From positions 11,238-75,237 of IMG/VR virus record IMGVR_UViG_3300042197_003319: DNA of 64,000 nucleotides; one strand, written 5' to 3'. The position numbers were made by a program, and so were the translations under genes. Positions within the stretch are counted from its first letter, which is position 1, and every line of letters begins with the position of its first letter. A model generated the notes under the pieces. That model did no database searches, had not been told where the DNA came from, and saw only the letters and a list, made by a program, of their open reading frames with translations. Shown piece by piece: positions 6,926 through 61,839 of the stretch. This DNA comes from a virus.

Positions 6926-6930
6926 AAACC

Positions 6931-35766: not shown

Positions 35767-38700
35767 TTAATCCACGTTCCTCGGCCCAAGCTCCCGCTTC
35801 AGCTGCCTTTTATCCGAAGCCTCCTGCCATAACTCGTATTTGTTTAGCACCAGAAGATCAGCGCTCTTGTTGGCTCTGCTTGTTAGGCGGGTGATCTCGT
35901 TTTGAACATCGCCAGAAGTGCGCTCAGGCAGTTCTTTAAGCCACTCCGGGTCCCTCAACGTTTCCCTAAGAACCTTCGCCCTTTCCATAACCCAATCATC
36001 CCTCTGCTCTTCGTTTAGCAGCACCCCCCTCACCCTTACTTGTCTTTCCGGCAGGGTCACCCAAGCCCTCTTCTTGGCCAGCTCAATCCAAAGAGGGTCG
36101 GGGTTATCCCGATAGCGCATAACAATATCCCCATAGTTGAAGAACGCCTGCTTGGCCCTATCCCATCCGTCCTTAGGCAGTTCTGATCCGTCGCTCAGCA
36201 TGGGCTCTCCCAATACGTTGGTCATAGGGTGGTTAAAGTTGCGGAGGAAAGGGATGTTCCCGATCCCAGCCGCCATAATGGATGAGTAATTGTCGGTCTT
36301 TTCGGGGAAGATTTTCCGGTCAGCTTCCCGCAGCAGGTTCCCAAACAGCATAGACCCACCCGTCCGCATCAGGAAGGCAACCGCTTTTTTGTCCCAGCTT
36401 CCGCTGTCCAGGTTGCCAAGGTCGGCCAGGGTTTTCACACCGCTTAAGAACGGAACGTCAACGATGCCAAAGAGCATCGACTTTAATCCGGCCAGTGAGA
36501 ACTGCATGGCCAGCTCCCCAGCCTTTGCCTGGTTGGGCTTCTCGTACTTTGAATAGTCGCGCATGTACCCCAGCGATTTAAACAAGAGGAAGGTCGGCAG
36601 CCAGTTCGGGTTCTTGAACCACATATTCCCCACCTTGATGCTTTCCGGTTGCCATTTTCCGCTGTCGATCAAAGCCTGCCTGAACGCAGGATCCGAAGGA
36701 CCCTTGCCGGAAAAGTCCAGGAACCTTTCTTTTTCGTCATCGTCTCCGTCAATTGTCCTGGCGATAATCGCAGTCAATCCCGCCAGCATTATCCCTAAAC
36801 CTGCAATCCCCCCGCCTAGTTCCATTGCCCGCATGTCGCTGGGCTTCTGCCTGGTCCCCTCTCCCCACACCTTGATCGTAGGGTTCATGCTCTTGAGTAT
36901 TCCTGTCCCCATCCAGGACAGCCATGTCTGGTAAACCGAAGTCACAATCCCGTAAAAAGGCTGGACCAGTTTCGCGATCAGGTAATCGTTGGACCATCCC
37001 TCCAAGGTCTTCGCGAGGAAACCCGTGACTCCCATCGGCTTGTTGGTGTAAGCCAGCACAGAGCCCAGGAAAAACGCCTCGTCAGTCACAGCCCCGACCA
37101 TTCTGTCGATGGTCTTCCTTTCAGCTTCGCTCGCCCTGTTCCAGACACGGTTCCAATAGGGGTTCGCCAATCCACGATTCCTTCTGGCCGACAGGTAAAG
37201 CTGTTGCCGGAACTCAAGTGTCCCAGGCTTGAGCCTTTCCACCCGCTCCTCAGACGCTTCCCGCTCTAGTTTCCGCACGATCTCCGGGCCTTCCAAGCCC
37301 TCCGGCAATCTCTCGTTTGTCCCGGCAATCTGTCTTGCGGTCCTGAGCATGCTGCCCAAGTCAGAAGACAACAGGCCCTGGGCATCAGGAACATCCCGGT
37401 CAGGGTAATTTTCAGCGAGCTCCCTCGAAACATCGGAAGCCGCAAGAGCTGCCGCAAGTTCGCTGTAGAAAGTTGTCGTGGCCAAATCCAGGGAGTTGTA
37501 GAGCCTCGAGATCAGAATCCCAAGACCTGTGGGGCTCACCTGGATTGCCGCTGAGTCTCCGTATTCGGGTGACCTAATCGTTCCGGCGCCAACCTTCTTT
37601 AACCCTACCCGAACAAGCTTAAATGTTTTGTCCCAGGCGCTCTTGGATATCGGGATTTGAGGCCAGATTCCACGCTTGTTCCACCCAAACCAAAGCTCAG
37701 CAAGCTTGGCCACGCCCCTGCCGAACGAAGAGTTTGCGTTGATCCGAACACCACCCTCACCAAGAAGCTCGGGCAAGGGACGACCGGATACCCTGGTCGA
37801 TAAGGTTTTTCCTGGAGCAAGGGTTTTACCTGAGCTGTCCCCGGTTGCCAGCAGGTCAATGGCTTCCACCAGGGCGTTGTTGATCGCTCTTGGGATGGCC
37901 TTCATGGCGACCCTGACAGACGACATGTTCTTGTCCCTGGCAACCCTCACCCCAAGCATAGCCCCGAGGTTCAGCGCGTTGCCGATTGGTGACAGAAGGT
38001 TGACCGTGATGGTCTTAACCCCTTGCAAAATATTCGTGTAGAACTGGCCGACAAAAGCCTCGAGAACCGTGACCCCGGAATCCTTCTTGATGGCGTCCAG
38101 GATGTCCATGGTCTTGCGGCCGGCCCTTCTGGAGTCAGGACCGTCAGGATCGTTGGCGATTTCGTTGGCTAGTTTCTCAATCGTCTTCTTGGTCTGCTCG
38201 CTCGGCATCCAGTTCTCGTCGTCGAGCTTTAGCTTCTTGGCCACATATCCGTAGATCACCTGCTCGGTAAGGTTCCCAGCCAAAGCAGCCTTCACGACGT
38301 TATGCAGGTTGTCCCGAATGGCCCTTGTCGCCCGGTTCTCGCTCTTCCCGAACACAAGTTGAATGGATCGCTGGATCTCGGTTTGGGCGATCTTTTCCAT
38401 TTCGTCCGAGATCTTGGACAGAACCCGCCCAAGCACGTCCTCCTTAACCTCGATTCCGCTGGCCTTAAGCTCGGCCACCAGGTCGGCCAGAACCTCTGCT
38501 TTCCTGGCCGTCAAAAGATACCTGCGGTTAAAGACAAACTCCTTGAAGTTGAAGCTTGGGAGGGTCATGTACGACCTGACGTCCGCCGTGGTGAACGGTT
38601 CGTCCATGGCCTGCTGCATGGCCTCGACAATCAATTGGTAAGAGCCTTCGTCCACCGAGTCTTTGAGGCTGTCGTAGATCATTTGAACCGCAGTCTGCAG

Positions 38701-41700
38701 GGATTCCCAGTTGTTCATGGCCTCGCGGAACCTGCGGACAGACTGAAGTTTCCTTTGCTCCTGGCTCATCTTGCTGCGGGTCAGCTTGAGCTGTCCGTTA
38801 CCCTGGAGCTGAACCCTTTCGCGAAGGATTCTGCGGATGATCCCCACGGCGGTTTCTTTGGGGGCCTTGTTTTCCGCGTCTTTTGCGTCCAGGGCCCTTT
38901 CAAAATTCTCAAGAAACCCATCCAGGACGTTCTCGATAATCTTTCGGCTGGCTTTGTTAACGTCTTTGACTGGGCTTCCGGTTCCCGAGACCTGCTCGTC
39001 TGCCTCGTCAGACATCATAGTGGTTCCGAAACGGTTCCAGAGGTGATTGTTGATCTCGTTTGTCGTCGCTTGGGCTGACTCATCAAGCACGTCCTGGGCC
39101 TCTTCGATGTTTTCCAGAACTTCCCCTTCGGAAACACCAAGCTCTTTGGCCACTTCTTTGGCGGAGGCTGTGCCTTTCTGCAAGAGCGCAGCGGTTCCCT
39201 CGGCAACCGTGGCCGACATTTGCCGTCTTGTCTCAGCCGAATCCTCGGTCTTCTTGAGCAGTTCGACCATTTCCTTGGCCGTCTTGATCTGCTGGTCGAG
39301 CACGTCGGAAAGCGTGTTTGTGCTCATCCTCTGCCACTCCGAGGAGATGCTGGCAATTCTCTTGGCCTTTAACAAAAGCTGCGCCCAGATGGCGTTGTTC
39401 GCTGTTGATTCGATCAGCCCGCCAAGCTTGGAAACTTCTTCTTTCCCAAACACTTTCTCCAAGGCGCTGTTGATGGCCTGGTCGCCAGCCATCTTGGCTT
39501 TGGCGATGTCGTCCGCAAACAACCCGACCTGGCGGAGCCTTTCGACCTGCTTGGCGTTTGTCGCAAACCACATCCAGCCAGCCACTCCGATCCTTGAATA
39601 AGCCCCAAAAGCCCTAAGCCCTTGGGCAAGGGATGTCCCGAGGTCGGCTTGTTTTCTTGCCAGAGCAAACTGCATGGCCCGTATTTCGTTTGCCCTTTCC
39701 GGGTTTTCCTTTGCTGCTTTTTCCAACTGCTGGATAAGGATTGAGTTAAGGATAACGATGTTGTCAAAGTGCCTGGTGCTTCCGTCGCGGATGGCCTGAA
39801 GCTCTTCGTCGTTAACGCTAAGATCGGGGCTAAGGATTGCCCTGGTTGCCTGCTCTGCCCCACCGACACGGTTGATCAGGGCCAACATTTCCTCTGCCCG
39901 CAAGGGCTGGGTCCTTACCGAGTACTTAAACTCACCCAGAGCTGTCGCGCTTCTGAGTTCGTTGCCAAGTCGTTCATCCCTGGCCAGCTGCCCGGCAAAC
40001 ACCTGGCGACGTTCTTTGCCTTCCCGCTTCTTAAAGTATTTCATGCCCCTGGCTTCCCGCTCTCCCTGTTCCCCACGGTATGGGCTTCCGGTTCCAGCCA
40101 CATCGTCGTTGCGGATTACAAACTTAATCGTTCCGGCTTTCTCCTGTTTCTCAAGCTCACGGACCAAAAGCCCAAATTCAGATCTCTGCCACACACGTCC
40201 GTTAAAAGGATATTTAGCGACAATCATTTGAGAGGCTACGTTTCCTCGAGCCCCTTCCCTTGAAACGTTTAGTGTCGTAAACCCAATAGCTCCTTTGTCT
40301 ATCAAGTCCCAGGTAAACCTAAATTTCGGTCTGGCTCTCCTGGCTTTGGCCTCACTTCCAGTTACCGGAGGTTCCGGATGAACCGTTTCTTTCGTGGAAA
40401 GCTTGTCCCGTTTGTTGATCTCAAAGGATGTTTTTGCGTTACGGCCAATTTCCGAGTACTCAAGCTTTTGGGAATTGGTCTTGTCCACCTTGTAAAGGTC
40501 CAGGGAATTAAGCTCGTGGTAGCCAGGTATTTTTGGGACCCCCTCAAAATAGAGCACGGTCCTGGGCTGGATGACGATCTTCGTCCCTTTTGTGACACCA
40601 GTTGCGTCCCCGTAGTCTTCGTGGGAATACATGTTCACATAGCGGTTGTTCTCATCCAAAAGGCTTTCGGGTGTTAGACTAACTTCTGTCAATACTCCGC
40701 CACGATTGGTCGAAATGCTTATGCCCGAGGTGGCAATCACATGGTCCAAGGGGGTCAACTTTAACCTGTCGGAATGCTCAAACCGCTCAAACAAGAACCG
40801 CTCCAACTCTTCCGCCGACATTCCGTTGTTGTTGTCGATGATGGTGTAGCGGTTGTTCACCTTGTCTACAGTCACACTGACCTTGGTTTTCGCATTTCCG
40901 GCTTTGAACGCCTGCTGAATCAGCTCCGTAAGTCCGTTAACCAGGTCGTAGTCCTTGGCCTGGCCGATAGCATTCTCCACCAGGGTTTTATTTACCAACA
41001 GAGGAACCTTAACCCTGCCCGGAGCATCTTCCCCGTCATAGTAAAGCGATCCGGTTCCGGCAACTTCTCCGTTGCGGCTTACAAGTTGAACCCCAGTCGG
41101 AGCCCTGTCCTTATACAGCATCTGCGGGTAGGTTACGTGTGAACGCTCCTTGATGATCTTAAGCGCAAGATCCATCAGGTTATTTGTCCTTGGCGATTCC
41201 GGTATCTTAATCACGTCACCTGGTTTCGGCTGGTAATCCGTCGGAAGGTTATTGTGTTTGGCCACTTCCTCCCTGGTCAGTCCGTACTTTGTCGCAATCT
41301 CAAGCAGAGTCAGTTGTTCCGGAGCCTCGAAGAACGGAGGCACTTCCACGCTCTTGGTAGTTCCGGGAATCAGCAATTGAGAACCGACAATAACTTTACC
41401 CATCGTCAGGTTGTTTGCTTTCTTGAGGTCCTGGACGCTAACACCGTTTTTGGCCGCGATATCAGCGAGCACTTCATCTGAAGTCCGCTTGCGGCCTTCC
41501 GGCACAACATATTCAGTTGCCTCTACCGGGACATCCATTTGGGGGGACTTGCCCGCGAACAGCATGTTTTCGGTCACGCTTCTCATGGGGCCGGTTGCGC
41601 TGATCTTTTTGCTGCGATTCACAACCGACATGCTCTTTGGCGTGTTCCGTAATAGGGCAAGCTGCTGGATTTTCTCCAAGCCCTGCTTGTTAAACTCACC

Positions 41701-44700
41701 CTTGCGATAGGTGACCCAACCAAACATCATCCCCACCTTGACAATGTCCTGGTCGTTTATCGAAGCGCCTGCCTCAAACCTTCCCGCGAGGTATGCCTCG
41801 GCTTCCCGCTTTACGACATAATCAAAACTGGAATTGGTGGCTCTACCCTGCTCAATGGCTTCCATCAAAAGGTCGATGCGCTGTTTCCGCAGCGCTTTCC
41901 TGACTTCGATTTGCGACTGCGCGACATTGTCGGGCCTTTCCGTTTTCTCGATGTCCACCTTCTTGGTTCTGGTGGCGATGTCTTTGCCGTACCACTTGCC
42001 TTTGTAGTAAATGTCGCCCTGCTCGCCCAGTTTCTGAATCGCAATCATCACCGCTTCGTCGGCGTTCCTGGCCCGGATATAGATCTTCTTTGACCTTGAG
42101 TTGACAGCACCGATGCTTCCGGTCGAGCGGTTGATCTTTGCCGCAGCGGAAGCCATCGACATCACCATGGCCTCGCCTCTCGGCCCACCCCGCTTGTTCG
42201 GCTTGCCGGCGATCTCTTTAAGGAGTCTTTTGGCGTTTATGTCGGCGATTTCCGGGTGAAGTTGGAACTCCCACATGGAGTTGCCCCGTTCGTCAACCAT
42301 AGGCTCGGACTTAATGATCGGCGTTCCGGCTGGCTTCATCCCAATTATGGTTGCCGGCTTGAGCGACTGAGTTTCCTTTTCGCTCTTGAACTCCACCCTC
42401 CGAATCGCGGAAAGATCCGGCTCAACGGGAAGTGTGACCATCAGGGTGGGGGAATCCGTCCCCTGGTCGCGGGTGATGGTTACGGCTTTCTTGGTCGTGT
42501 AATAAGCCGAAGCCGCGTATTCAGCGTGCAGACTCGGCACATAGGAACCGTCGGTAAATATCGGGATCTTGAAATTCCCCGAAACGTTTTTGTCGGAGTT
42601 ATACTTAAGGATCATCCCGACCCCACCGTAAGACACCGGCAACTGCCACTCTCCGCTTTCCGCCTTGGACCACCCTTTCTCTTTGGTTTCCTGGTAAAGG
42701 ATTTCCGCAGATATCTTCTTATCCTCGACGTTTGCCAGGCCAAGATAGTTTGCCGGGAATGTCCACTCGATTGTCTTTTTGTAGACCGGGGCCCCCTGAC
42801 CAAACTTCGGGACCATGCCGCGACGCTTGAGCTCCGCCACAATCGCCGGTGGCAGATTGTTAAGTTCCTGTTCTGTTACAAGGACACCTTCCTGGGAGTC
42901 ATCGACTTTGATTTGGCTTACGTATTCGGTCTTCAGCATTCTGTCGAATACGTCCTGGACCTCAGCTTTTTCAGCGAGGATTTTCTGCCGTGCAGCCTGT
43001 AGTTCTGAACGTTTTTTGAAAGCCAAAGCTGCTCTTGGGTTGTTCTCTTCTCCCATCTGCAACTCGGACAATATCTCCTGGTTAATCAAAAGAATTTTTT
43101 GATCCTGCTTTCGGATGTCTTCTTCAATATTTTTTAAGTGGACACGATATTCGTTAACCCTCTTTGGGATGCTTGGGGTTAAGACCGCGGAGCGAATCGA
43201 CTTTTGGTCGATCAACTTCATGGTCATCTGCAGACGTCGTCTGGCGGCTTTGTCGAGAGGTGCCGGAGGAAGCTCCTGTTTCGCTTTTTTAGAAACCCAT
43301 TTTTTAAGACCAGCGTCCCAATCGGCATCCGCACCGGTGATCTCCGGGATTGAAACGTTGGTCGTCAGCCACTGCTCGTAAGCCGCCACTGCTTTCTCGG
43401 CAAGCTCCCTGGCTTCCTTTGTCTTCTCTTGGTCGCCGATGGCGTTTAGAAACCGCAGGATTTCCTTGGTATGTTTGTTGGTTTCTACAAGTTTTTTGAC
43501 GGCCTCGTCTTCGTAGGACAATATTCTTGAGTTGGTTTTTGTGACCTCGATTGCCTTTCGGAAAGGCCCAAACAGCACATTGACAACCGGGTCCTGCAGG
43601 GCTTTTGTCTGAACCATCGGCTCCGAAAGCTTTTTGATTTCCTGCATGAAGTCCCGCAATTCCTTACGGGTTTTCGCAAGCTCGATTGTTTCTTCGAGCC
43701 ACTGCTCATCCTTGGCAATTGTTTCCAGAACTTTCTTGAACCGGAAATAGTTTTCCATGCCGGCAGCTTCCAGGGCGGCAAGCAACCTGTTGTATTCCCA
43801 CCGCGACTTGAATCCCCTCTGTTCCAGCACTTCGTCCGTGATCTCCGGCGAATCGAATACTTCCAGGTTTGCCAGGTTGGGCCCGTACTTCTCTTGCTGG
43901 TCGGTGGTTATTTGAAAACCTTGAGCGCCCATGTACAGGCCGTGTTGAGTGGACAAATAGGCGTATTTTCCTGCGTAATCCTCCGTTAGGATTTCTTCGG
44001 CCGCGGAATCAACATCCATGCCGTCGTAAAACTCTTCGTCGTCAAGCCCGGTATTAGGGTTATTGTAGTTCGAAGAAGCGTAATCGGTTTCTTCTTCGTA
44101 AACTTCCTCGCCAAAATAGTACACGGGTTTCTGAATAGATTGGCGATCGCGCTCAAGCGTTTTCCGAACCACCTCCCATTTTATTTCGGCAATTTGTCTA
44201 CGTATCTCCTTCATCTCCAACTCGATCTGTTCGCGTGTCCTTGGCGTTCCTGTTCCCGATACCCATTCCTTGGACTCAAGGTCTTGATTTGGTTTTTGCG
44301 CTTCCTTAACCCTAAAGGTCACCGCTTCCATTGCTTTTTGGATGGGTGACACGGAAAACATATCTTCCGCATTCCCCTGACGCGAGTTGTCGGAAAGAGC
44401 CGCTGCCAGCTCGTCCATCATCACATTAAACAAGGTGGCTGATTTCGCTGTATACTTTGTCTTTCCGTTTTCCAATTTTGTGGTCGGCCCGATTTTCTCG
44501 GACATGAAATCGACCAGGGCCCTGAACTCTGGGTTTGCATCGATCTCTGGGAACTTGTTGGTGGCTGTGCCCTTTTCGTCAAGCAGGTCCATGACGTTGG
44601 AACTTGAAGCCAGCTCTTTGATTGCCGCGTACGGGCTCATGTTTCTGGCTTTTTGGGAGAGCATTTGATTCATCAACCTGCTGAAGAAAGCCTTGTACTG

Positions 44701-47700
44701 GGCGCTTTCTTTTTCCCCAAGAACTTCCGACGATGCGACACACTGGGCCATGGACAAATAGAGGTTTTTGGCGTTGCCCTGGTCCATCACTTCCCTGACC
44801 ATTTCTGTTGCCGGGGTTGTGCTTTTGGGGGCATTCAGATGTCGGTCCATCGGCTGCAAAAACTCACGTAGGATCATGTACTGCAGGTATTCGACCGGCT
44901 GAGAACCTGCCGCGCTGCTCAGCAAGGCGGCTCTAGAATCCCTGTCGATGACGTTTTCTTCGACGAGTTGTTTGATAAATGTCTGAGCCCCCTCCCTAGT
45001 CAGGTTGTGGAGATCGACGGCAAGAGACCTTAGCTTTTTGCGCTTGGTCTCTGATTTGGCCACAGCGTCATAATCCTGGTCAGCTTTTTGCAAATGGGTC
45101 AGTTCCGACCCACCTTCAGCGTTCATCACCTTAACCAGGTAATCCAGTCTTTCGGAACCCTCCTGGGTTGAGGTGTCAACCTGCTCCGTCATTACCCGAT
45201 AAAGGAAATACCCTCCAGTTTCGAGGTCGGCTGGTATTTCTCCCCCCATTCTGGCCGTCATGTCTTTCGCAAGATCCAGCATTGCAGACACGTTTTCGGG
45301 AGACTTGGCAAACTGATACCCGAGAACTTGCTCCCGTGCATTGCCTCCGACCACCATCCATTCGCCTACCGCCTTATCAAAAATAAGGGTGGGAAGCCCT
45401 TGGTTGGGCGAACCGGCCCCCTCGTTTACGATCTGCTGCGGGTCAAAACCTGGGCCTTGGATTTTTAGAATCTTTTCCTTTTCTGCCGGGTCATAAGAAT
45501 AATTCCTGGTATTGCGACCGGTGTATCTTGAGTTTGCCCCAAAGAATTTTTCTGAACCCATGTGGGAGGCCTGAACCTTTGACCTTTTGACCCAGGCGTA
45601 AACAAAAGGATGCCTTTGACCAGAAGCGTCTCGCACCTTTTGCTCTGGCCCAAAATCTACGATATCTCCTGGGTTTCTCTTTTTAAGCGTGGTGGCATGC
45701 GTAATTGTTCTTGTGACGCTGGACAAGTCCACCGGCTCTGCGGTTACAGCTGAGCCACCTTCCCTGAGCGTAACCTTCGGTCCCTCCTCCGTGGAAACAA
45801 GTTTGAGCAGGCTGGTTATTGACTCGTTGTTTTTCGGGGGTGCGTTAGGACCATATTTTTCAAGGTGGAAAAGGATGTTGTCCGTTGCGTCCAGGACAGA
45901 CCCAAGGAATGGGCTGTCTTTTACGGTGATGCCCAGACGGCCAAGGATATCAAACACCGCCTGCCGCAATGCCTTGAACCACATCGCCAGGTATCCGTCT
46001 TTGGGAACCCCTTTGAGGAGCTGTCTCAGGCTTTCTTCGTCTGCCTCGGATGGGCGGATAAAGTCCTCCGTCGTGTAACCAAGTCTGGCTTTTTGCAGGA
46101 CGAATCTGATGTATTCAATGGTTGCCGATTTGTCATCAAGCTCCCTGCCGTACCTTTTTCTTAGGAGCTCCAATGCTTCCGGGGATATCTCTTCAAAAGC
46201 CTTTTGGGTCAGGTAGTTCATTGTCCTGGAGTAAGCTTCCTGGGCGGTTAGTTCTCCAGACCTAATCTGCCTGTCATACAACTGAACAGCCACGGTTCTG
46301 ACCACCGCGTAAGTTGCGTTGTGCGCCATCTCTTCGCTTGCTGTGCTCAGAAGATATCCTCTTCCCGCTTCGCCAACCCTGCCCCGCATGTTGAGGGAAA
46401 TCCTGTCCCTGTTGTTGAGGAGGACTTCCGGCTTGATGTATACCGTGTTGAAGTCCGGTGACGAAATACTTACCCAAGCCGCCATGTCTCCCCTGTCCCC
46501 AAAGATAATTTTTACGTTCTTGAACTTCAGGTCCGAAAGGGCTTTTGCGAATTCGTCGACAACATCCTGCTGGTAAGGTGACAAGCTGGAAAATCTTTCG
46601 TCAACAAGCTGACCGTTTCTAAGAACAGTTGCCTGCCTTCGGACTTCGCCCTGCAGGTCTTTTGCGTAGACTTTTCCGTCGCCAGTTTCCTTCGGTATCT
46701 GGGGGCGACCATCAACATAAGTCGACCCTTGAAAAGGAAGGGTGGGTTGGTTGCTGTCGCCTTGTTGCAGAACACCCTGGGTGGCGGCAAGAACACCCTG
46801 CTTGCTTTCCCGTCTGCGGATTCTCTCAAGGTCCGTCCAAATGTCCGAGGCAACCAGTTCTTTGATAACCGGCTCCGACATGGAAGAAAGCCGGTAGCCT
46901 GCGCGCTTTAGGATCTGATCGTGCTTGTCGGCAGCCTCGTTCGGAGTCGCGATATAAACAACTCTTGGTGCTGTTCCCGTCTGGTCGTCCAACGATAGCC
47001 CGGCTCCACCCTTCATCGGGGTAACAAGAGCCACACGTTTTAGGCCTACCTGGAAGTCATTGATGTCGGAGGTCATTTGAGCTCCGCCTTCCCCGTAAAT
47101 GACAGCCGGCTGGAGTCCTTCTTTGCGGAACATGTCGTTCAGCATCTCCAGCATGGACGGGGTTTTGCCGAAGTTTATCTCCGGGAAGGAGATCTCGTTG
47201 ACGAATTCCCCGAAGATAACAACCTGCTTGCCTTGCCGCAGATCCTGCATGGCCATTTCGAAAATGTACGGAGCCTTGTTAACTTCGGCCCAGGCTTCCG
47301 TCTTGAACTTCAACACGCCCTCAAGCTCGAGCGTTTTACGCTGTTGCTCGACCGTTGGGATCACCGAAGGGTCGCCGGTCAGCTCGGAAATTTGTCTGCG
47401 GTAATAACCCTCGATCTGTTCGATCTGAGCCTTGATTTGCGGACCGGCGTTAAGCTCAACCCTCGATGTCTGAACGTTGATCCCTTCCGGCACTCTCCGG
47501 ATGTAGGCCCCAACGGTTGCAGCCGACTCAACAAGGTTGGCGATGGTCTCCTCTTTGTTCTTGGAGATTTCCAACATCGAGCGAACGGTTGTCTCTGATT
47601 TGCCGAGAATTCCCGGCAGGAAATAGAGAGCACCCGAAAGGCGGTCGGCGGGAGTTGCCGTAAGGAAAATCTTAAATGCCTTGGTCTGCCTCGCCATCTG

Positions 47701-50700
47701 GTTACGGATGGCGGTGGTGTTCTTGAGGTTCTGGGCTTCGTCGAACAGGATTACGTCCGCAGACTCAATGTCCTTAATGGAGTTCTTGGAATAAGCATCG
47801 TACGTGTAAAAGAACACGCGGTTCTTCGGGATGTTGGCCGAGGCCAACTGGCTTTTTAGGCCGCCCGTGGAAGCGTTGATTAGCTCGTTGCTTTCCGTGA
47901 TAACGATGACTTTCCCGTACGGCTCGTTGCGCGCAGCAGCTTTCATGTCTGCGATCACACGGGCAGCCGCCTGCCCCGACCTGGTCTTCCCCAGGCCTGC
48001 GTCGTCCGCCAACAGTGCCGCCTCCCGCCCAACCTTGTAGGCGTTCACAATCAGGTTGGCCGCTTCCCTTTGGTGCGGAAGCATCAGGTAACGGTTCGGG
48101 ACCACGTTTGGGACAGCCGGGTTTGCGTCCGAGATAACCTTCAATGCCGGCTCTTTGATGCCAACCCCCGGCTGCTTGGACGCAAGGATTGCCTGCATGA
48201 GCTGGATCGCTTTGTTTGCCGCCCCCTGTCTTGGGGACATATCAAGCTGGTCCTGGATTTCGGCGACCTCGACGTTGGTCAGGAAGCCCGACTCGTACAG
48301 CTCTTCCAGCAAATCCCTGGCCAGAGCCTGCGATTCCCGGTCAAAGGCGGTGAGCTGTGGCTTACCTTTCGTTTCCGAAAGAACCCTGAATGTCTTTTGC
48401 GGACCCTGGATTATCTCGGGCAGCTGCCCGGTTTTTTGGTAAGCTTCAAGGTCTTTGTTGTATTTTTCTTTTACAAAAGCCACCATCCCGTCGATCATTT
48501 TTGGAAGGCTCTTGGCCAGCTCTCCGGTGCTCGTCTTGTACCCCATCGAGTTAAGAACACCTGCTATCTCTGATAGCTTTGTGGTGTTCTTCGCAAACTC
48601 TTTCGGGTCTTGGTTTTTCCTTGAGGCTTCGTTAAGCGCAGCCCCGAGCAGGTACTTCTGGCCAGGGTCCTCGACCGAGGCGAAGTATGCGTTTTTGGCG
48701 TTCTTCCGAAGATCACTGCGGACATCTTCGTCACTGGCCTGAACCGTGGGGGAGGCAATCACATCCTCAAGCGTCTCGTCTCCTGAGTCGTCTCCCAGGC
48801 TTTTCTGGAGACTTACGGCGGACTCTAACCCTATTTTCCCGCCAAGCCTCCGGCCAAGCTTCCTGGAGTAGTCTTCCACCACGGAACGGAAGATCCTGTT
48901 TTTCGAAATTCCAGGTACGTCCTGGGTCTGGAAGAGTTCGTTGGCTTCTTTGTCCGTTACACCGGAGGTCTTGTTTTTACGGACATCGTACTTGCGGCGC
49001 AGCTGTCTCCAGTAGCGCATCCGAGCCGCGTTGGCCAAACGGGTTTCGTCAACGGTGAGGTTGGGGTTATCGAGCTTGAACTTTGAGGCCTTTTCCCGGA
49101 ATGCCCTTTCGGCCTCGGCAAGGTTTTGGGCCTCGTCGGGGGATTCCGGTAGTTTCTCAAGAGCAGCCAGATAGTCCGTGGACTCTTCGCTAAAAGAAAT
49201 TTCGTTGCTGACCCTAGACCCCGGTTGCGAGACCTTGGGTAAACGTCTTACCGGCTCAGGCCGGTTTTGCTGCAGCCTTCCGTACCTTGCGTTCAGATCG
49301 GAAAGCGCCGTGGAGACGTTTACCGGCAGATCCACTTCTGCCTCCTCCGGAGGAGGCGTTCCTTTGGCGAGCTCCTTGGCTCTGTCGACCATCGGCCCTT
49401 TCGGCTTTTGCCACAATACCGCAATGGTGTTTTTGACCTCTCGGACAAAAGCGGCTTGGAGCTCTTCGTCGTCCGGCCATACCAGGTCGGCCTGCTTTAG
49501 GATCGGGATGATCTTGTCCGCAAATTCGGCGTAGGATAAGTCGGACGGAAATAGTTTGTCCCCGTCCTTGATTCGTCCGGCCTCAAGAAATTCCGGGCGC
49601 AGCTTGTTGAGATAGTATTCGGCGGAGTAATCCACACTCCTCTGCAGCTTGGGGTCGAGCTTGGGCGTGCCGGTACCGCTGAAACCCTTAAAGAGAAATT
49701 GTTGGGTTAGTTTGTTTTCGGGGACAAGGGTTGTGTAAGGTTTCTCATCCCCTGCCCGCTTGAAGTCCATCTCAAGTTGCGGGTCGACCGGAACCGTAGC
49801 CTGTGTGTCAGGGTCAACTTGTTTGCCGACGGGGAGTTCCTGGTCCACCGCCAAAGGTTTGTCGACAGTCGCCTGGGTGTCTGGCGTTCTAACTTTTCCG
49901 GCAGGGAGTTCCTGGTCCACCGCCAATGGCTGGTCGACAGTCGCCTTGGTGTCGACTTTGGCCGGACGTCCTGGCCTTGAGAAGTTAAGCTCGTCCGGAA
50001 GTCTCCCAGTCCCAGCGATCTCTTCCCCTTCTACTTGAGGAGTGACTGGCGCTTGACCTTGTTCAGCAGCCCCTGGCTGCACGTTTTCCCCAGGAGCGAC
50101 TTCTTCTGGGGTTGTGGTTGCGGCTTCTTCTTTTTGTGTCGTTGATGGTTGCCCACTGGTTGTTCCCTCCGTTGGCATCAAAGAGCCAAGATCAAACGGC
50201 TCGTCTGTTTTTAAAATGTCCTCATCCGGCCTCTCGTATTCCGTCATCGGTTTGAGGGATTCGGCCACTTCCTGCTCAAGCCCGACTTCGGCCTGGGCCT
50301 GTGAGGTCAAAGGAGCGTTGGAAATCTCAGGTATATTCCCCGATCCTCTCCTCCTCAGCCTAAGCCCCAAGGCGTTGACGACTGCGCTGACCAAAACTCC
50401 GGAAGTTCCCCCAACCTTTGCCGACTGCAGGAGGTCTTCGGTTAACTCTTGGTTGGGGTTGTATCCAATCTTCTCAAAGAAGTTCGAGGCCCATGTCTGG
50501 AAAGCTTCCTGGGAAAATTCTTCTGCCCCTTCCTTCGCCACCTCTTTCATGTAACCAATAAAACCCCTTGAGAACTGACCTCCGGTGGAATCGTCCAGCT
50601 TGTCCACCCATTTGGCCATGGGGATCGCTTCGCTGGTTCCGAAAAGGGCGTTTAGCGCAGAGTACTTCAGGGCCTGCTCGTCGCTTGCGCCCTCTGAGAG

Positions 50701-51492
50701 CGCTTTGGAAACAGACTGTCCCCCGGAAATTGTCGACCCGGTTATCATCGTTGTTTGGGTCCCAGTCAGGCCGAGTGTTCTTCCGGCAGGACCCGCAAGC
50801 AACATCCCGGAACTTTGCCCGACCGCCCCGGCAACCTGACCCGGCAAGGACTCCTGGGTTTCCTGGCTTACCGGGAAAGTACCCTCGACGTTTTGCTCGT
50901 ATTTTCTGGCGAGCTGGTAACCCAGGGTTGACTCGACCGGGTAAGGTTTGCCCTGCGTGACATAACCAAGCCCGCTGGTTAAAGCTCCGTAGGCGTCAGC
51001 AGCCCCTGAGATGTTGGAATAAAAACCCCGCATAAGAGCGTTCGGAAGTTCACCCGCCTTCCAGGATTCCGGCTCTTGCGGCTTCTCAAAGGACTGAAGT
51101 TCGAGCCTTGCGTCCTGGGGAAGGATTTCAGCGGATACCGGTTCCGTCTCCGTAATACCCTGGAGGTCTTCCTGTAACAGGTCTGCCAGGGACTTCTCTT
51201 GCTGGAGTTTGGGCTTAGGGAGAAACGGTGCGTCCAACTCGGTCGACGCCATTTCGATGGGGGATGGCGGGTTGGAAAACATGGCGACCTGCTTGTTGTC
51301 ACCGGCCACAAGGGTTTTGTTGAACTCGCCAAGCACCTGGTCGTTTTCAGACGTATCCGGCTCGGCCTTAAGAAACTCTACAAACTTTTTCTGTTCTTCC
51401 GTGAGCTCTATTTCCGGCTCCGGGTTGTCTACCTGCCCCTTATCGCCGGCCAGAAGTTCGGCCAGCGTCTTGTTCGGATCGAGAGGGTTCAC
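35767..51492 (-). CDS. giant (5241 aa) internal virion / polyvalent protein
   Basis: Last gene of the virion operon. Contains an SF2 Strawberry-notch-like helicase (LLADDAGLGKT, DEAQNLKN, TATP, GGAGLSLDD), a ddrB/ParB-like domain (VVGGNAR), two LysM repeats, a degenerate GHKL domain, an EExxH motif, a sigma-like segment and a helical C-terminus resembling ejection proteins. Confidence 0.85.
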   Translation of the reverse strand: MNPLDPNKTLAELLAGDKGQVDNPEPEIELTEEQKKFVEFLKAEPDTSENDQVLGEFNKTLVAGDNKQVAMFSNPPSPIEMASTELDAPFLPKPKLQQEKSLADLLQEDLQGITETEPVSAEILPQDARLELQSFEKPQEPESWKAGELPNALMRGFYSNISGAADAYGALTSGLGYVTQGKPYPVESTLGYQLARKYEQNVEGTFPVSQETQESLPGQVAGAVGQSSGMLLAGPAGRTLGLTGTQTTMITGSTISGGQSVSKALSEGASDEQALKYSALNALFGTSEAIPMAKWVDKLDDSTGGQFSRGFIGYMKEVAKEGAEEFSQEAFQTWASNFFEKIGYNPNQELTEDLLQSAKVGGTSGVLVSAVVNALGLRLRRRGSGNIPEISNAPLTSQAQAEVGLEQEVAESLKPMTEYERPDEDILKTDEPFDLGSLMPTEGTTSGQPSTTQKEEAATTTPEEVAPGENVQPGAAEQGQAPVTPQVEGEEIAGTGRLPDELNFSRPGRPAKVDTKATVDQPLAVDQELPAGKVRTPDTQATVDKPLAVDQELPVGKQVDPDTQATVPVDPQLEMDFKRAGDEKPYTTLVPENKLTQQFLFKGFSGTGTPKLDPKLQRSVDYSAEYYLNKLRPEFLEAGRIKDGDKLFPSDLSYAEFADKIIPILKQADLVWPDDEELQAAFVREVKNTIAVLWQKPKGPMVDRAKELAKGTPPPEEAEVDLPVNVSTALSDLNARYGRLQQNRPEPVRRLPKVSQPGSRVSNEISFSEESTDYLAALEKLPESPDEAQNLAEAERAFREKASKFKLDNPNLTVDETRLANAARMRYWRQLRRKYDVRKNKTSGVTDKEANELFQTQDVPGISKNRIFRSVVEDYSRKLGRRLGGKIGLESAVSLQKSLGDDSGDETLEDVIASPTVQASDEDVRSDLRKNAKNAYFASVEDPGQKYLLGAALNEASRKNQDPKEFAKNTTKLSEIAGVLNSMGYKTSTGELAKSLPKMIDGMVAFVKEKYNKDLEAYQKTGQLPEIIQGPQKTFRVLSETKGKPQLTAFDRESQALARDLLEELYESGFLTNVEVAEIQDQLDMSPRQGAANKAIQLMQAILASKQPGVGIKEPALKVISDANPAVPNVVPNRYLMLPHQREAANLIVNAYKVGREAALLADDAGLGKTRSGQAAARVIADMKAAARNEPYGKVIVITESNELINASTGGLKSQLASANIPKNRVFFYTYDAYSKNSIKDIESADVILFDEAQNLKNTTAIRNQMARQTKAFKIFLTATPADRLSGALYFLPGILGKSETTVRSMLEISKNKEETIANLVESAATVGAYIRRVPEGINVQTSRVELNAGPQIKAQIEQIEGYYRRQISELTGDPSVIPTVEQQRKTLELEGVLKFKTEAWAEVNKAPYIFEMAMQDLRQGKQVVIFGEFVNEISFPEINFGKTPSMLEMLNDMFRKEGLQPAVIYGEGGAQMTSDINDFQVGLKRVALVTPMKGGAGLSLDDQTGTAPRVVYIATPNEAADKHDQILKRAGYRLSSMSEPVIKELVASDIWTDLERIRRRESKQGVLAATQGVLQQGDSNQPTLPFQGSTYVDGRPQIPKETGDGKVYAKDLQGEVRRQATVLRNGQLVDERFSSLSPYQQDVVDEFAKALSDLKFKNVKIIFGDRGDMAAWVSISSPDFNTVYIKPEVLLNNRDRISLNMRGRVGEAGRGYLLSTASEEMAHNATYAVVRTVAVQLYDRQIRSGELTAQEAYSRTMNYLTQKAFEEISPEALELLRKRYGRELDDKSATIEYIRFVLQKARLGYTTEDFIRPSEADEESLRQLLKGVPKDGYLAMWFKALRQAVFDILGRLGITVKDSPFLGSVLDATDNILFHLEKYGPNAPPKNNESITSLLKLVSTEEGPKVTLREGGSAVTAEPVDLSSVTRTITHATTLKKRNPGDIVDFGPEQKVRDASGQRHPFVYAWVKRSKVQASHMGSEKFFGANSRYTGRNTRNYSYDPAEKEKILKIQGPGFDPQQIVNEGAGSPNQGLPTLIFDKAVGEWMVVGGNAREQVLGYQFAKSPENVSAMLDLAKDMTARMGGEIPADLETGGYFLYRVMTEQVDTSTQEGSERLDYLVKVMNAEGGSELTHLQKADQDYDAVAKSETKRKKLRSLAVDLHNLTREGAQTFIKQLVEENVIDRDSRAALLSSAAGSQPVEYLQYMILREFLQPMDRHLNAPKSTTPATEMVREVMDQGNAKNLYLSMAQCVASSEVLGEKESAQYKAFFSRLMNQMLSQKARNMSPYAAIKELASSSNVMDLLDEKGTATNKFPEIDANPEFRALVDFMSEKIGPTTKLENGKTKYTAKSATLFNVMMDELAAALSDNSRQGNAEDMFSVSPIQKAMEAVTFRVKEAQKPNQDLESKEWVSGTGTPRTREQIELEMKEIRRQIAEIKWEVVRKTLERDRQSIQKPVYYFGEEVYEEETDYASSNYNNPNTGLDDEEFYDGMDVDSAAEEILTEDYAGKYAYLSTQHGLYMGAQGFQITTDQQEKYGPNLANLEVFDSPEITDEVLEQRGFKSRWEYNRLLAALEAAGMENYFRFKKVLETIAKDEQWLEETIELAKTRKELRDFMQEIKKLSEPMVQTKALQDPVVNVLFGPFRKAIEVTKTNSRILSYEDEAVKKLVETNKHTKEILRFLNAIGDQEKTKEARELAEKAVAAYEQWLTTNVSIPEITGADADWDAGLKKWVSKKAKQELPPAPLDKAARRRLQMTMKLIDQKSIRSAVLTPSIPKRVNEYRVHLKNIEEDIRKQDQKILLINQEILSELQMGEENNPRAALAFKKRSELQAARQKILAEKAEVQDVFDRMLKTEYVSQIKVDDSQEGVLVTEQELNNLPPAIVAELKRRGMVPKFGQGAPVYKKTIEWTFPANYLGLANVEDKKISAEILYQETKEKGWSKAESGEWQLPVSYGGVGMILKYNSDKNVSGNFKIPIFTDGSYVPSLHAEYAASAYYTTKKAVTITRDQGTDSPTLMVTLPVEPDLSAIRRVEFKSEKETQSLKPATIIGMKPAGTPIIKSEPMVDERGNSMWEFQLHPEIADINAKRLLKEIAGKPNKRGGPRGEAMVMSMASAAAKINRSTGSIGAVNSRSKKIYIRARNADEAVMIAIQKLGEQGDIYYKGKWYGKDIATRTKKVDIEKTERPDNVAQSQIEVRKALRKQRIDLLMEAIEQGRATNSSFDYVVKREAEAYLAGRFEAGASINDQDIVKVGMMFGWVTYRKGEFNKQGLEKIQQLALLRNTPKSMSVVNRSKKISATGPMRSVTENMLFAGKSPQMDVPVEATEYVVPEGRKRTSDEVLADIAAKNGVSVQDLKKANNLTMGKVIVGSQLLIPGTTKSVEVPPFFEAPEQLTLLEIATKYGLTREEVAKHNNLPTDYQPKPGDVIKIPESPRTNNLMDLALKIIKERSHVTYPQMLYKDRAPTGVQLVSRNGEVAGTGSLYYDGEDAPGRVKVPLLVNKTLVENAIGQAKDYDLVNGLTELIQQAFKAGNAKTKVSVTVDKVNNRYTIIDNNNGMSAEELERFLFERFEHSDRLKLTPLDHVIATSGISISTNRGGVLTEVSLTPESLLDENNRYVNMYSHEDYGDATGVTKGTKIVIQPRTVLYFEGVPKIPGYHELNSLDLYKVDKTNSQKLEYSEIGRNAKTSFEINKRDKLSTKETVHPEPPVTGSEAKARRARPKFRFTWDLIDKGAIGFTTLNVSREGARGNVASQMIVAKYPFNGRVWQRSEFGLLVRELEKQEKAGTIKFVIRNDDVAGTGSPYRGEQGEREARGMKYFKKREGKERRQVFAGQLARDERLGNELRSATALGEFKYSVRTQPLRAEEMLALINRVGGAEQATRAILSPDLSVNDEELQAIRDGSTRHFDNIVILNSILIQQLEKAAKENPERANEIRAMQFALARKQADLGTSLAQGLRAFGAYSRIGVAGWMWFATNAKQVERLRQVGLFADDIAKAKMAGDQAINSALEKVFGKEEVSKLGGLIESTANNAIWAQLLLKAKRIASISSEWQRMSTNTLSDVLDQQIKTAKEMVELLKKTEDSAETRRQMSATVAEGTAALLQKGTASAKEVAKELGVSEGEVLENIEEAQDVLDESAQATTNEINNHLWNRFGTTMMSDEADEQVSGTGSPVKDVNKASRKIIENVLDGFLENFERALDAKDAENKAPKETAVGIIRRILRERVQLQGNGQLKLTRSKMSQEQRKLQSVRRFREAMNNWESLQTAVQMIYDSLKDSVDEGSYQLIVEAMQQAMDEPFTTADVRSYMTLPSFNFKEFVFNRRYLLTARKAEVLADLVAELKASGIEVKEDVLGRVLSKISDEMEKIAQTEIQRSIQLVFGKSENRATRAIRDNLHNVVKAALAGNLTEQVIYGYVAKKLKLDDENWMPSEQTKKTIEKLANEIANDPDGPDSRRAGRKTMDILDAIKKDSGVTVLEAFVGQFYTNILQGVKTITVNLLSPIGNALNLGAMLGVRVARDKNMSSVRVAMKAIPRAINNALVEAIDLLATGDSSGKTLAPGKTLSTRVSGRPLPELLGEGGVRINANSSFGRGVAKLAELWFGWNKRGIWPQIPISKSAWDKTFKLVRVGLKKVGAGTIRSPEYGDSAAIQVSPTGLGILISRLYNSLDLATTTFYSELAAALAASDVSRELAENYPDRDVPDAQGLLSSDLGSMLRTARQIAGTNERLPEGLEGPEIVRKLEREASEERVERLKPGTLEFRQQLYLSARRNRGLANPYWNRVWNRASEAERKTIDRMVGAVTDEAFFLGSVLAYTNKPMGVTGFLAKTLEGWSNDYLIAKLVQPFYGIVTSVYQTWLSWMGTGILKSMNPTIKVWGEGTRQKPSDMRAMELGGGIAGLGIMLAGLTAIIARTIDGDDDEKERFLDFSGKGPSDPAFRQALIDSGKWQPESIKVGNMWFKNPNWLPTFLLFKSLGYMRDYSKYEKPNQAKAGELAMQFSLAGLKSMLFGIVDVPFLSGVKTLADLGNLDSGSWDKKAVAFLMRTGGSMLFGNLLREADRKIFPEKTDNYSSIMAAGIGNIPFLRNFNHPMTNVLGEPMLSDGSELPKDGWDRAKQAFFNYGDIVMRYRDNPDPLWIELAKKRAWVTLPERQVRVRGVLLNEEQRDDWVMERAKVLRETLRDPEWLKELPERTSGDVQNEITRLTSRANKSADLLVLNKYELWQEASDKRQLKRELGPRNVD
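49790..49960 (-). repeat. about 72-bp (24-aa) tandem repeat x2.5 inside the giant gene
   Basis: DT(K/Q)ATVD(Q/K)PLAVDQELP(A/V)GK repeated. Confidence 0.8.
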
Positions 51493-58200: not shown

Positions 58201-59259
58201 ATCACCGTTCGCTCCATCTCCGGAAGAAGGGTTTACAGCACCATTGAGCACAGACTTTCCGTCGGCACCAATAGGACCTTGCGGCCCAGTTGGGCCGGCA
58301 GGACCAGTAGCTCCGGTTGCTCCGGTTGCTCCGGTTGCTCCAGTTGGTCCGGTGTCGCCAGTATCGCCTTTTGGCCCCTTAATCTCCCCAACTTCGACCC
58401 AAATAGTACCATTGCTTACCCACAAAAATCCTGTGCTGCTGACAATATAACCTGTTCCGGCAGCCGGTTGTGGGCTACTCGGAAGATCAGCTGACGTTGC
58501 TACCGAGTCGACAATCGTGACGCTGGTTCCGTCAGCGCCAGCCGGCCCTTGGGGACCTGTTGCCCCGGTTGCTCCGGTAGGACCGGTAGGACCGGTGGGC
58601 CCAGTGGGGCCAGCCGGACCTGTGTCACCTGTGTCCCCCTTTGGCCCGGTCGGTCCAGTAGCCCCTTGCGCTCCTGTCGGGCCGACTGGGCCTTGGGGCC
58701 CTACCGGGCCTGTGTCTCCTGTGTCTCCTTTTGGACCGGTAAGCCCTTGCGGACCTGCGGGGCCTTGGGGACCCGTAGCTCCTGTCGCTCCCGTCGGGCC
58801 TGCCGGGCCTTGAATTCCTTGTGGTCCGGTAAAGCCTGTCTCTCCAATCGGGCCTTGTGGTCCTGCTGGGCCTGTGGCGCCAGTTGCCCCGGTTGATCCG
58901 GTTGCTCCTGTGTTACCAGTGTCTCCTTTTGGTCCGGTTGGACCTGCCGGGCCTTGGATACCTTGCGGCCCAGCTACACCCTGAGGACCTTCCGGCCCAA
59001 TATCTCCCTTGATTCCCTGGATTCCTTGCGGCCCTTGAGGGCCTGTATTACCAATCGGCCCTTGAGGGCCTGTAGGACCGACCGGTCCTTGGACTCCTTG
59101 TGGGCCTTGAGGGCCTGCATTCCCAATCGGTCCTTGCGGACCAGCCGGACCACTGACCAATGCGGACGCCCACTTTTGTCCGTCCCAGGTATACACAGCA
59201 AAGCTGGTGGTATACGTTTGCCCGATTGTCGGGTTTGAGGGAAAATTTAAGGCCGGCAT
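55228..59259 (-). CDS. collagen-like tail fibre protein
   Basis: [12 protein letters not shown]...YTWDG.KW N-terminus; long Gly-X-Y runs; 2x [21 protein letters not shown] modules; 3x AATV..G..TTGAAGS..TNSGT.SAAVF modules; C-terminal KNMLING beta-sandwich. Confidence 0.9.
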
Positions 59260-60902: not shown

Positions 60903-60903
60903 C

Positions 60904-61839
60904 TTAAGCTTCCAGTTTGACGCAGGTGATGGTGACAGTGATGTTTGCGCTAGAGGCTCCAATGTTGGTGACGACGATCGGGATGGAGGCTACCGGGCTG
61001 GCTTCGTCGTTAAACCCTATCACAGCTGGGGCAAAAACAGATGTGCTCGCTCCGCTGGAATGAATTACTTCGGCAACGACCCCGGCATTGGCGTCGGGGT
61101 CCACGCTAACGGATCGGCTTGAGTCGGCCGTACGTTTCGCGCTGTTGGTGTAAACCCTTACCCAGGCGGATGCACTGGTTTGGATTTTGTAAAGCGCGTA
61201 TCCCTTGTAGGCCGGAATATCGAGACTTTCACTCCAGCCGGAGGCAAGAAGGTTTGTCGTGTTGGCGGAAAAAACGCCTCTCGATTCGATCATGCCGCCA
61301 GGAAGAGCGGCAACCCATTGGGAAGAATCGGCATCCGTGACGTAGATGTAAATTTTCCCTGTGGAGGTGTCCCACCATAAATCCCCTTGGGCAATCCCGG
61401 ATGTCGGAGGGGTGTCCTGGACAGTAATTCGGTAAACAGGGCCTTGAGGACCAGTTGGGCCTGCAGGACCGGCTGGGCCTTGGGATCCAGTTGAGCCAGT
61501 CAAGCCAGTCGGCCCTGCAGGACCTTGCGGACCTGCGGGGCCTTGAGGACCTGTGGCGCCGGCGTCAACAGCCCATGTCGAGGGGCCTGTTTTTTTCAAG
61601 TACCCTGTCGTAGAAACCGAAGCCAGGTTGGTTAGATTCTGGTCCAATACTCCGGTAACTGTTCCGGTAAACACTGCGCTTCCGGAAACTTCAATCCCGG
61701 TTGTGGAAATCTTAAGAGCAGATTGCGTTCCATCGCCATCTTCCACGGTCGCCAATGTGGAGGTGATCCCAGAAGAACTATTGATCTTAAGAAGTTCTGG
61801 AAAGGTAAGCGCTGGGCTTCTGCCTGCTAAAGTGCTCAT
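60904..61839 (-). CDS. short collagen-containing structural protein
   Basis: Gly-X-Y run, QDTPP....GDLWWDT..G.IYIY..D module, C-terminal beta domain. Confidence 0.75.

Follow-up and report, generated by a model that had tools for sequence, protein, structure and literature searches.

A giant protein encoded by the IMG/VR virus record IMGVR_UViG_3300042197_003319 carries six copies of a short peptide, [VIF]-[AS]-G-T-G-[STR]-[PL], located in the linkers between its modules. The stretch of DNA that we analysed, hereafter called the window, comprises 64,000 nucleotides and corresponds to bases 11238-75237 of this single 75,237-bp record. The protein (P0001; 5,241 amino acids) is encoded at window positions 35767..51492 (-) by an open reading frame (ORF) that is open throughout and begins with a GTG start codon. 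Related proteins still mark all six positions, and within each lineage the letters of the peptide shift jointly from copy to copy. Moreover, relatives that have gained a module have gained a copy of the peptide along with it. The interpretation that we prefer, to which comparison of the sequences leads us to assign a probability of roughly 0.55, is that this is a polyvalent polyprotein whose junction signal is cut by a protease, the best candidate being the zincin-like domain of the giant protein itself.

Few phage proteins are as large or as poorly understood as polyvalent proteins, whose processing is presumed to release separate anti-host effectors. Known examples include DarB/DdrB of phage P1, proteins resembling the vRNAP of phage N4, and gp47 of phage phi24B (PMC5512222; Iyer, Burroughs, Anand, de Souza, Aravind 2017). 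Like these proteins, P0001 is a giant product of a late operon that strings together unrelated enzymatic domains, namely an SNF2 helicase, a zincin-like domain, two LysM repeats, a GHKL domain and a weakly matched ParB-like domain. A polyvalent architecture had been proposed in an earlier reading made from the DNA alone (hereafter the sequence-only reading), and these domains bear it out. What appears to be new here is that the junction code of a polyvalent protein is explicit and varies in step with lineage. Full-text literature searches recovered no published cleavage-site code for polyvalent proteins.

Six junction peptides in interdomain linkers

The pattern [VIF][AS]GTG[STR][PL] matches the 5,241-residue protein exactly six times. 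Site 1 (IAGTGRL, aa 492-498; 49999..50019 (-)) resides in a low-complexity stretch rich in proline, threonine, glutamate and glutamine, and site 2 (FSGTGTP, aa 604-610; 49663..49683 (-)) likewise falls in low-complexity sequence. Site 3 (VSGTGTP, aa 2411-2417; 44242..44262 (-)) is located in a predicted coil. Site 4 (VAGTGSL, aa 3477-3483; 41044..41064 (-)) lies between the second LysM repeat and the GHKL domain, site 5 (VAGTGSP, aa 3798-3804; 40081..40101 (-)) follows directly past the last strand of that domain, and site 6 (VSGTGSP, aa 4168-4174; 38971..38991 (-)) separates a helical module from the C-terminal domain. These are the same six copies that the sequence-only reading had listed, with correct coordinates for copies 2-6; copy 1, however, starts at 49999 rather than at 50002 and had been given one codon short. 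The observation that most copies are preceded by acidic residues also holds, in that five of the six sites have such a residue no more than three positions upstream.

The composition of the protein predicts 0.0008 matches to the full pattern versus the six observed, but this pattern was defined post hoc, and therefore the plain GTG tripeptide provides a fairer test. This tripeptide occurs seven times where 1.47 occurrences are expected, and seven or more were obtained in only 6 of 20,000 shuffles. The seventh GTG (WMGTGIL, at aa 4862) is embedded in a conserved hydrophobic stretch, a context unlike that of the six sites. No other credible ORF carries the motif in this context, as judged from a six-frame scan of the window and from all ORFs of the 75-kb genome.

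The six cores are encoded as GGG-ACT-GGG, GGT-ACC-GGC, GGA-ACA-GGA and, in three cases, GGA-ACC-GGA. Four distinct DNA versions among six cores indicate that the repetition exists at the level of protein rather than of DNA, as had been argued from the differing codons, and a DNA-level repeat or gene conversion is thereby ruled out. Sites 5 and 6 have 15 nt in common.

Structure models built with AlphaFold (AF2) place sites 3-6 in coil segments for which the predicted local distance difference test (pLDDT) is below 50, and each of these segments separates confidently folded domains. In the model of aa 1570-2470, site 3 (model residues 842-848) falls within such a segment at residues 831-854. 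In the model of aa 3300-4300, which was built on ten sequences, site 4 (residues 178-184) lies within segment 135-194, site 5 (residues 499-505) within segment 495-550, and site 6 (residues 869-875) within segment 851-883. Sites 1 and 2 occur in a low-complexity stretch with short tandem repeats, and troughs of sequence conservation coincide with all six sites. Thus, the suggestion that the copies fall at boundaries between domains is upheld by these models, as is the more specific claim that copies 4 and 5 bracket a GHKL domain, for which both AF2 and Foldseek provide evidence.

The region between sites 1 and 2 (aa 498-600; 49690-50000 (-)) contains imperfect tandem repeats of the form DT.ATVD.PLAVDQELP.GK, whose number varies among relatives that are 97-98% identical.

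A motif-like sequence, DFSGKGP (aa 4926-4932; 36697..36717 (-)), lies immediately beyond the hydrophobic helix of the C-terminal domain and is preceded by a run of acidic residues. It is kept as F-[ST]-G-x-G-P in all lineages, including a relative with 33% identity (P0014), and its middle residue ignores the lineage rule described below. This sequence could be a seventh site that is constitutive, or else a turn in the structure.

Lineage versions of the peptide and gain of modules

Relatives were collected from protein collections, IMG/VR and metagenomes, in part by alignment-based scans. The collection comprises nine full-length proteins that are 48-98% identical to P0001, the more distant P0014 at about 33% identity, two lineage fragments (P0013 and P0015) and eight further loci, so that the sample of motif versions amounts to about seven lineages. 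An exhaustive search of representative sequences added only P0013, P0014 and P0015, its remaining matches being LysM proteins. A scan of IMG/VR with a single C-terminal sequence retrieved nothing, and among 50,697 phage records there was no match either to 7.9 kb of the gene (blastn) or to the C-terminal 1,067 residues (tblastn).

Relatives at 28-98% identity retain a mark at each of the six positions. The literal GTG is a feature of close relatives: only those that are 77-99% identical over the stretch compared resemble this phage in carrying GTG at every copy seen. P0006 has GAG, GAG, GTG, GAG, GAG and GAG. GAG or GSG is used in P0007 and P0008, where the pattern [VTS]G[AS]G was seen seven times versus 0.65 expected, whereas P0004 and P0005 carry AAG, GAG, SAG and GSG. 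In P0009, P0010 and P0013 the triplets are GAS, GSS and AAS. P0014 conforms to [AG][AG][SA]P[ETD], as exemplified by SAAASPEI, PAASPTI and AAAAPEI (six seen versus 0.23 expected), and P0015 follows P-x-AA[ST]-x-[ILV]-E-P or close variants thereof (EPAAATTIEP, LPSAATELEKP, PVAASEVEP). Common to most versions are upstream acidic and hydrophobic residues and a proline one to three residues downstream. Absence from homologues, which the sequence-only reading had named as a refutation, is too simple a test: relatives with about 55% identity or lower lack the literal GTG, yet each lineage bears its own version at the same places.

By contrast with the junction peptides, small-residue triplets within conserved domains are invariant across lineages, as seen in the ParB-like domain for NEGAGSPN. 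AAG occurs eight times in P0011, a distant polyvalent protein, versus 3.7 expected, which is not significant.

Six sites with fixed positions and jointly changing letters argue for one shared reader of the signal, and the sequences fit a motif that acts as a recognition code marking module boundaries. Two chemical roles for the central residues are ruled out by the relatives. Threonine cannot be an autoprocessing nucleophile (Ntn-type cleavage at G|T), because relatives have alanine at this position. Likewise, the peptide is not a site of serine or threonine modification, because several of the sites in relatives lack both residues (GAGELQP, GAGAIKP).

The most direct tie between the peptide and the modules comes from locus L005, which is 99% identical to P0001 on the flanks of site 5 and contains 167 extra residues exactly there. 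The insert reads ...DDVAGTG|KVYTGEG...EEIVSGTG|TPYRGEQ, such that a second copy of the motif closes it. A similar gain is evident at site 1 of P0003 (97% identity), where an extra module of ~78 aa lies between ...PVTGTG| and ...EISGTG|. The interval between sites 4 and 5 is especially variable in content. It holds the GHKL domain in P0001 (321 aa) and this domain plus the insert in L005. In P0014 it spans 767 aa with one extra site, and P0015 has no GHKL domain there but two short segments and an additional site. The addition of modules that each bring their own copy of the motif is, on this sequence evidence, the behaviour of a polyprotein or a cassette array.

The 167-aa insert itself (L005:11504-12010 (+)) is a candidate for a recently acquired effector cassette. 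It matches no Pfam family, and it has no relatives among proteins of 297-2,000 aa.

A candidate reader and its rivals

In the arrangement that we propose, the chain would consist of seven modules. The first would be the Gly-rich N-terminal part and the second a short piece of 112 aa. The third, of 200 kDa, would combine the SNF2 helicase with the zincin-like and ParB-like domains, whereas the fourth, of 120 kDa, would have the two LysM repeats at its end. The GHKL ATPase-like domain and the helical region would constitute the fifth and sixth modules, and the seventh would be the 120-kDa C-terminal domain, which is LPD38-like by features only and includes a hydrophobic helix. Disordered linkers would join these modules, each holding one signal composed of acidic, hydrophobic and small residues (GTG in this phage) that is often followed by proline. 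A single partner would read the signal, and the specificity of this partner would drift between lineages. Such a drifting reader would account both for the joint change of all copies in one protein and for the need of a new module to bring a copy.

The reader would most likely be a protease that severs the modules from one another, whether inside the head or once the chain has been ejected, and the best candidate for this role is the E-E-x-x-H domain of the giant protein. What the sequences and models establish is the motif with its positions, its concerted change, its placement in linkers and its tie to the gain of modules, whereas cleavage, the protease, the scissile bond, packaging and injection are inferred. 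Cutting after GTG would give products of ~53, 12, 201, 120, 36, 41 and 120 kDa. The boundaries of the inserts would fit a cut at this point; a zincin more typically cuts before a hydrophobic residue.

The zincin-like domain (~aa 1619-1881; 45850..46638 (-)) was modelled by AF2 with a pLDDT of ~80. In the model of aa 1570-2470, a small sheet is followed by a long helix that bears the sequence E-E-M-A-H-N (aa 1720-1725; 46318..46335 (-)) at the place occupied by HExxH in zincins. EEMAHN is invariant in 10 of 10 sequences, including the 29-33% identical P0014. In a structure search with VIA, which is independent of Foldseek, zincins recur among the top matches over model residues 50-312, with Z scores of 4.5-5.9, which are suggestive only. 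These matches include at least four M1 aminopeptidases, the Grifola peptidyl-Lys peptidase, lugdulysin, M13 peptidases (PepO/ECE-1/Zmp1), HtpX and selecase. Judging from the range-end offsets of the matches to LTA4H, aminopeptidase A and puromycin-sensitive aminopeptidase, H1724 appears to correspond to the second histidine of HExxH. Hence, the domain is probably a zincin with glutamate in place of the first zinc-binding histidine. Foldseek with the whole 901-aa model returned nothing significant, phmmer with the zincin region against PDB sequences gave chance-level matches only, and ESM Atlas features for this region point to LPD23, which is a weak lead. The sequence-only reading had named this domain as one of two candidate proteases. 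Its zincin-like fold is favoured by the models, albeit with weak Z scores, but the replacement of the first zinc-binding histidine makes its activity uncertain.

Overall, the internal EExxHN domain is plausible as a reader and is the best candidate that the models provide. Metallopeptidase domains have been proposed, in general terms, to autoprocess polyvalent proteins (PMC5512222). When this domain was modelled together with the 53 aa surrounding site 5, the prediction of the complex returned no answer (score 0.00), which is evidence neither way.

Several observations weigh against cleavage by this domain, or against a code of any kind. The Z scores of the zincin matches fall below the level that is safe for matching folds. 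With glutamate rather than histidine as the first metal ligand, the domain could be inactive or otherwise employed, and P0014 lacks the TAQEAY helix that is a possible supplier of the third ligand. There is also precedent for a metallopeptidase domain in proteins that travel unprocessed, as is the case for N4 vRNAP, ArdC and TraC1 (PMC5512222). Furthermore, the covariation by lineage is confounded with phylogeny and is sampled in only about seven lineages, and linkers are rich in glycine, alanine, serine and proline anyway, so part of the signal could be generic.

An extended version of the preferred interpretation holds that P0001 is a self-processing effector polyprotein, in which a zincin with an unusual E-E-x-x-H motif recognizes a cleavage code that each lineage is able to reprogramme, and new cassettes join by bearing the code that is current. 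We regard this fuller proposal as tentative, and clearly less probable than the preferred interpretation.

Among the alternatives, the one that survives best is a junction signal that is never cut. Its non-proteolytic partner might be a chaperone, a component of the ejection channel or a factor for packaging or head targeting; alternatively, the peptide might form a defined hinge. In either case, the protein would act as one working chain. Concerted change needs one shared reader but not specifically a protease, and both the unprocessed transfer of some metallopeptidase-bearing polyvalent proteins and the replaced zinc ligand of the zincin-like domain would be in keeping with this possibility. 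However, identical letters at every site are not required of a pure hinge, and neither is a change from alanine or serine to threonine at six places throughout a lineage. Moreover, a factor that would bind six or seven peptides scattered over the linkers of a single cargo protein is not known to us, and it is the habit of a polyprotein that every added module has its own copy. We therefore consider an uncut signal unlikely.

Marginally less probable still is that the sites are cut in trans by another phage enzyme, for which the S8 subtilase, a CHAP-like cysteine peptidase or an unrecognized head protease might be considered. The S8 subtilase was the other protease put forward by the sequence-only reading. 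Its gene is real (566 aa; 59262-60962 (-); Pfam PF00082, E=6e-29), resides inside the fibre module and is also present, with 54% identity in one search and 52% by BLASTP, in contig G002, which belongs to the P0004 lineage. However, no such gene occurs in contig G001, which spans the entire late region, terL and the giant gene included, and retains the sites. The closest relatives among named phages, with 34-44% identity, are carried by T4-like cyanomyoviruses of Synechococcus and Prochlorococcus (S-CREM1, S-H38, S-RSM4 and others), which have no giant protein, and there they adjoin baseplate or fibre genes. An enzyme that is missing from a site-keeping lineage and present in cyanophages without a giant protein is an unlikely reader, and the proposal that it processes P0001 is thus not sustained. 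More likely, the subtilase belongs to the fibre module. Its role appears to be undescribed in any phage, and its likeness to the cyanophage proteins is a hint that the host may be cyanobacterial, or at any rate aquatic.

The CHAP-like protein (226 aa; G000/L001 6201-6881 (-)) has a weak Pfam CHAP match (E=9e-5) that lies below the cut-off. It is conserved at 74-81% in both related contigs, as an enzyme acting in trans might be, but the motif is conserved far less well, and PHROGs assigns the protein to endolysin families. Many late proteins are unannotated, which leaves room for a head protease that has escaped recognition. Nevertheless, the motif is missing from every capsid, portal, scaffold and fibre protein, and this would be unusual for the substrates of a general head protease.

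It is improbable that the reader is a host protease that acts in the periplasm or cytoplasm once the protein has been ejected. Signal peptidases and tail-specific proteases have similar preferences for small residues at P3 and P1, and the LysM repeats and the hydrophobic helix suggest that parts of the protein probably meet the cell envelope. Housekeeping proteases are, however, broad in specificity and slow to evolve, which leaves the strict GTG of one lineage versus the GAS or AASP of close relatives unexplained. The weakest alternative, that there is no signal and that ordinary linkers rich in glycine, serine, threonine and proline have combined with chance to yield a pattern defined after it was sighted, is very hard to reconcile with the shuffling result for GTG, with the constraint on flanking positions as well, and with the retention of all six positions, in a separate version per lineage, down to 29-33% identity.

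The value of this case is that it offers six exact positions together with natural controls, in the form of lineage versions and of near-identical relatives with one gained module, and that the named candidate enzyme has an unusual active-site motif. If the sites are indeed cut, the module boundaries of such giants could be read from sequence and their effectors expressed singly, and the co-evolution of a protease with its sites could be traced in a simple system. If the protein also processes itself by a reprogrammable code, a phage could rapidly change the set of proteins that it injects. Should junction codes in other giant phage proteins prove to be the same thing, this would represent a general, so far undescribed organizing rule of phage polyvalent proteins.

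Domains, known parallels and the late operon

The helicase module of the SWI2/SNF2 type, a member of superfamily 2 (SF2), occupies ~aa 1031-1587 (46732..48402 (-)). It is matched by Pfam ResIII (E=1.3e-7) and SNF2-rel (E=4.6e-6), with the ResIII/SNF2 match spanning aa 1137-1284, and by PHROG 62. This region is homologous to the helicase of P0011, with 27% identity over 597 aa. Precomputed Pfam hits for P0011 include RadC (PF04002), PF18760 and PF18857 (LPD38), which identify it as a textbook polyvalent protein. A possible ParB-like domain follows the zincin-like domain (~aa 1949-2130; 45103..45648 (-)). Its assignment is weak (VIA Z score of 4.6 to the PadC ParB-like structure 6ryk), and the region has invariant ASH and GN.REQ motifs. 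The combination of SWI2/SNF2, zincin-like and ParB-like domains has been named for polyvalent proteins (PMC5512222).

Two LysM repeats are found at ~aa 3326-3432 (41197..41517 (-)), where Pfam PF01476 matches two stretches (E=4e-12) and AF2 is in agreement. The GHKL-fold ATPase-like domain (~aa 3493-3794; 40111..41016 (-)) was modelled with a pLDDT of ~80 and has a weak Pfam HATPase_c match. Foldseek with its alpha/beta domain retrieved SMCHD1, MORC3, Hsp90, GyrB and MutL at E values of 2e-6 to 1e-4, which confirms the fold. Neither GHKL nor LysM occurs in the text of PMC5512222. The helical module between sites 5 and 6 (aa 3803-4167; 38992..40086 (-)) is defined by AF2 and contains a stretch near aa 4100-4130 that resembles a helix-turn-helix (HTH), for which all Pfam HTH families score below their cut-offs.

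The C-terminal domain (aa 4173-5241; 1,069 aa; 35770..38976 (-)) is the best-conserved part of the protein and includes one strongly hydrophobic helix (aa 4891-4914). ESM Atlas features place 24 of 30 hits in LPD38 clusters with a score of 0.96, which serves as a lead and not as a test. Unlike established polyvalent proteins, P0001 has no LPD family that reaches the Pfam threshold; the Pfam LPD families give no hit anywhere in it even at E<=1, and the C-terminal domain has no match to any Pfam family.

Other differences from the described polyvalent proteins are evident. Their metallopeptidases have HExxH or HExxxH with a downstream glutamate, whereas the giant protein has E-E-x-x-H. PMC5512222 does not define cleavage sites, in contrast to the explicit, position-conserved and lineage-specific junction peptide described here. 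The polyvalent protein phi24B gp47 combines LPD38 with a metallopeptidase domain, and proteomics recently detected it in virions (bioRxiv 10.64898/2026.04.10.717836). By analogy with gp47, P0001 may also be carried in the virion.

Among proteases that mature viral cores, there is a resemblance in the form of the code. The type-1 consensus of the adenovirus protease (AVP) is written (M/I/L)XGX-G, and [VIF]-[AS]-G-T-G fits this formula, whereas the AASP-type versions of other lineages do not. AVP cuts IVGL|G (PMC4246237), and pS273R of African swine fever virus (ASFV) cuts after Gly-Gly-X in pp220 and pp62 (PMC10308890). As in the giant protein, these codes combine hydrophobic with small residues and are repeated at the boundaries of core precursors. 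AVP and pS273R are, however, cysteine proteases of clan CE, whereas an alignment of relatives reveals no invariant cysteine anywhere in the giant protein, and Pfam and PHROGs scans of the late genes recognized no clan CE protease, although remote homologues among unannotated ORFs are possible. We regard the resemblance as a functional analogy only.

Phages offer a second parallel. The motifs of head proteases of the T4/phiKZ type end in glutamate. These enzymes also trim capsid and scaffold proteins, whereas here the proteins of the capsid module lack the motif and no prohead protease was recognized by Pfam, PHROGs or NCBIfam profiles, with the proviso that remote homologues may lie beyond the reach of profiles. 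In T4 and in phages like phiKZ and SPN3US, packaged cargo is processed at a short consensus that may occur more than once per protein, and this takes place before DNA packaging or in the course of it (PMC5694885, PMC10052503).

The giant gene is the last large gene of a minus-strand late operon and is located downstream of tail and fibre genes. The operon begins with terL (window 4925-6676), which is followed by a portal-sized ORF, a 95-aa ORF, a 432-aa coiled-coil protein that resembles a scaffold and several variable ORFs. Next are a conserved 426-aa protein, which is probably the capsid protein, then small proteins that include the CHAP-like protein and a PD-(D/E)XK nuclease, an 884-aa protein and three proteins resembling tail collars or fibres. 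Across the ends of the record, the series continues with a 574-aa protein, a fibre, the S8 subtilase, a 1,343-aa collagen-like fibre, four small proteins and finally the giant gene. This late module is syntenic from terL to the giant gene in both G001 and G002. The interval from portal to capsid thus holds only the 95-aa ORF, the 432-aa coiled-coil protein and the variable ORFs; for the scaffold-like protein, phmmer against PDB sequences gave chance-level matches only.

The ORF that immediately follows the scaffold-like gene (G000 11016-12290 (-), or L001:11016-11400 plus window 1-1053) has a peculiar organization. Its N-terminal 30 residues are conserved at ~80% (MDD.P..NDGAD.SLRK.VSLLN.IEA), and the remainder is unrelated and ranges from 169 to 1,025 aa in related contigs. 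This N-terminal segment is duplicated in G001. We considered the segment as a signal for head targeting and cleavage, and rejected this role given that no motif is present there. The protein may instead be a decoration or fibre that is anchored to the capsid and whose distal parts can be exchanged.

The PD-(D/E)XK nuclease (L001:5800-6204 (-); Pfam E=1e-17) resides in the middle of the structural operon and is conserved in related contigs. The 1,343-aa tail fibre (window 55228-59259 (-)) contains long collagen-like repeats and gives PHROGs fibre hits with E values down to 1e-114. An adjoining fibre protein of 311 aa has a C-terminal domain in common with PHROGs 15343 and 9627. Lastly, a tyrosine integrase gene (window 6856-8157 (+); PHROG 1, E=9e-30) adjoins the terminase gene, and on the basis of its sequence content the phage is probably temperate.

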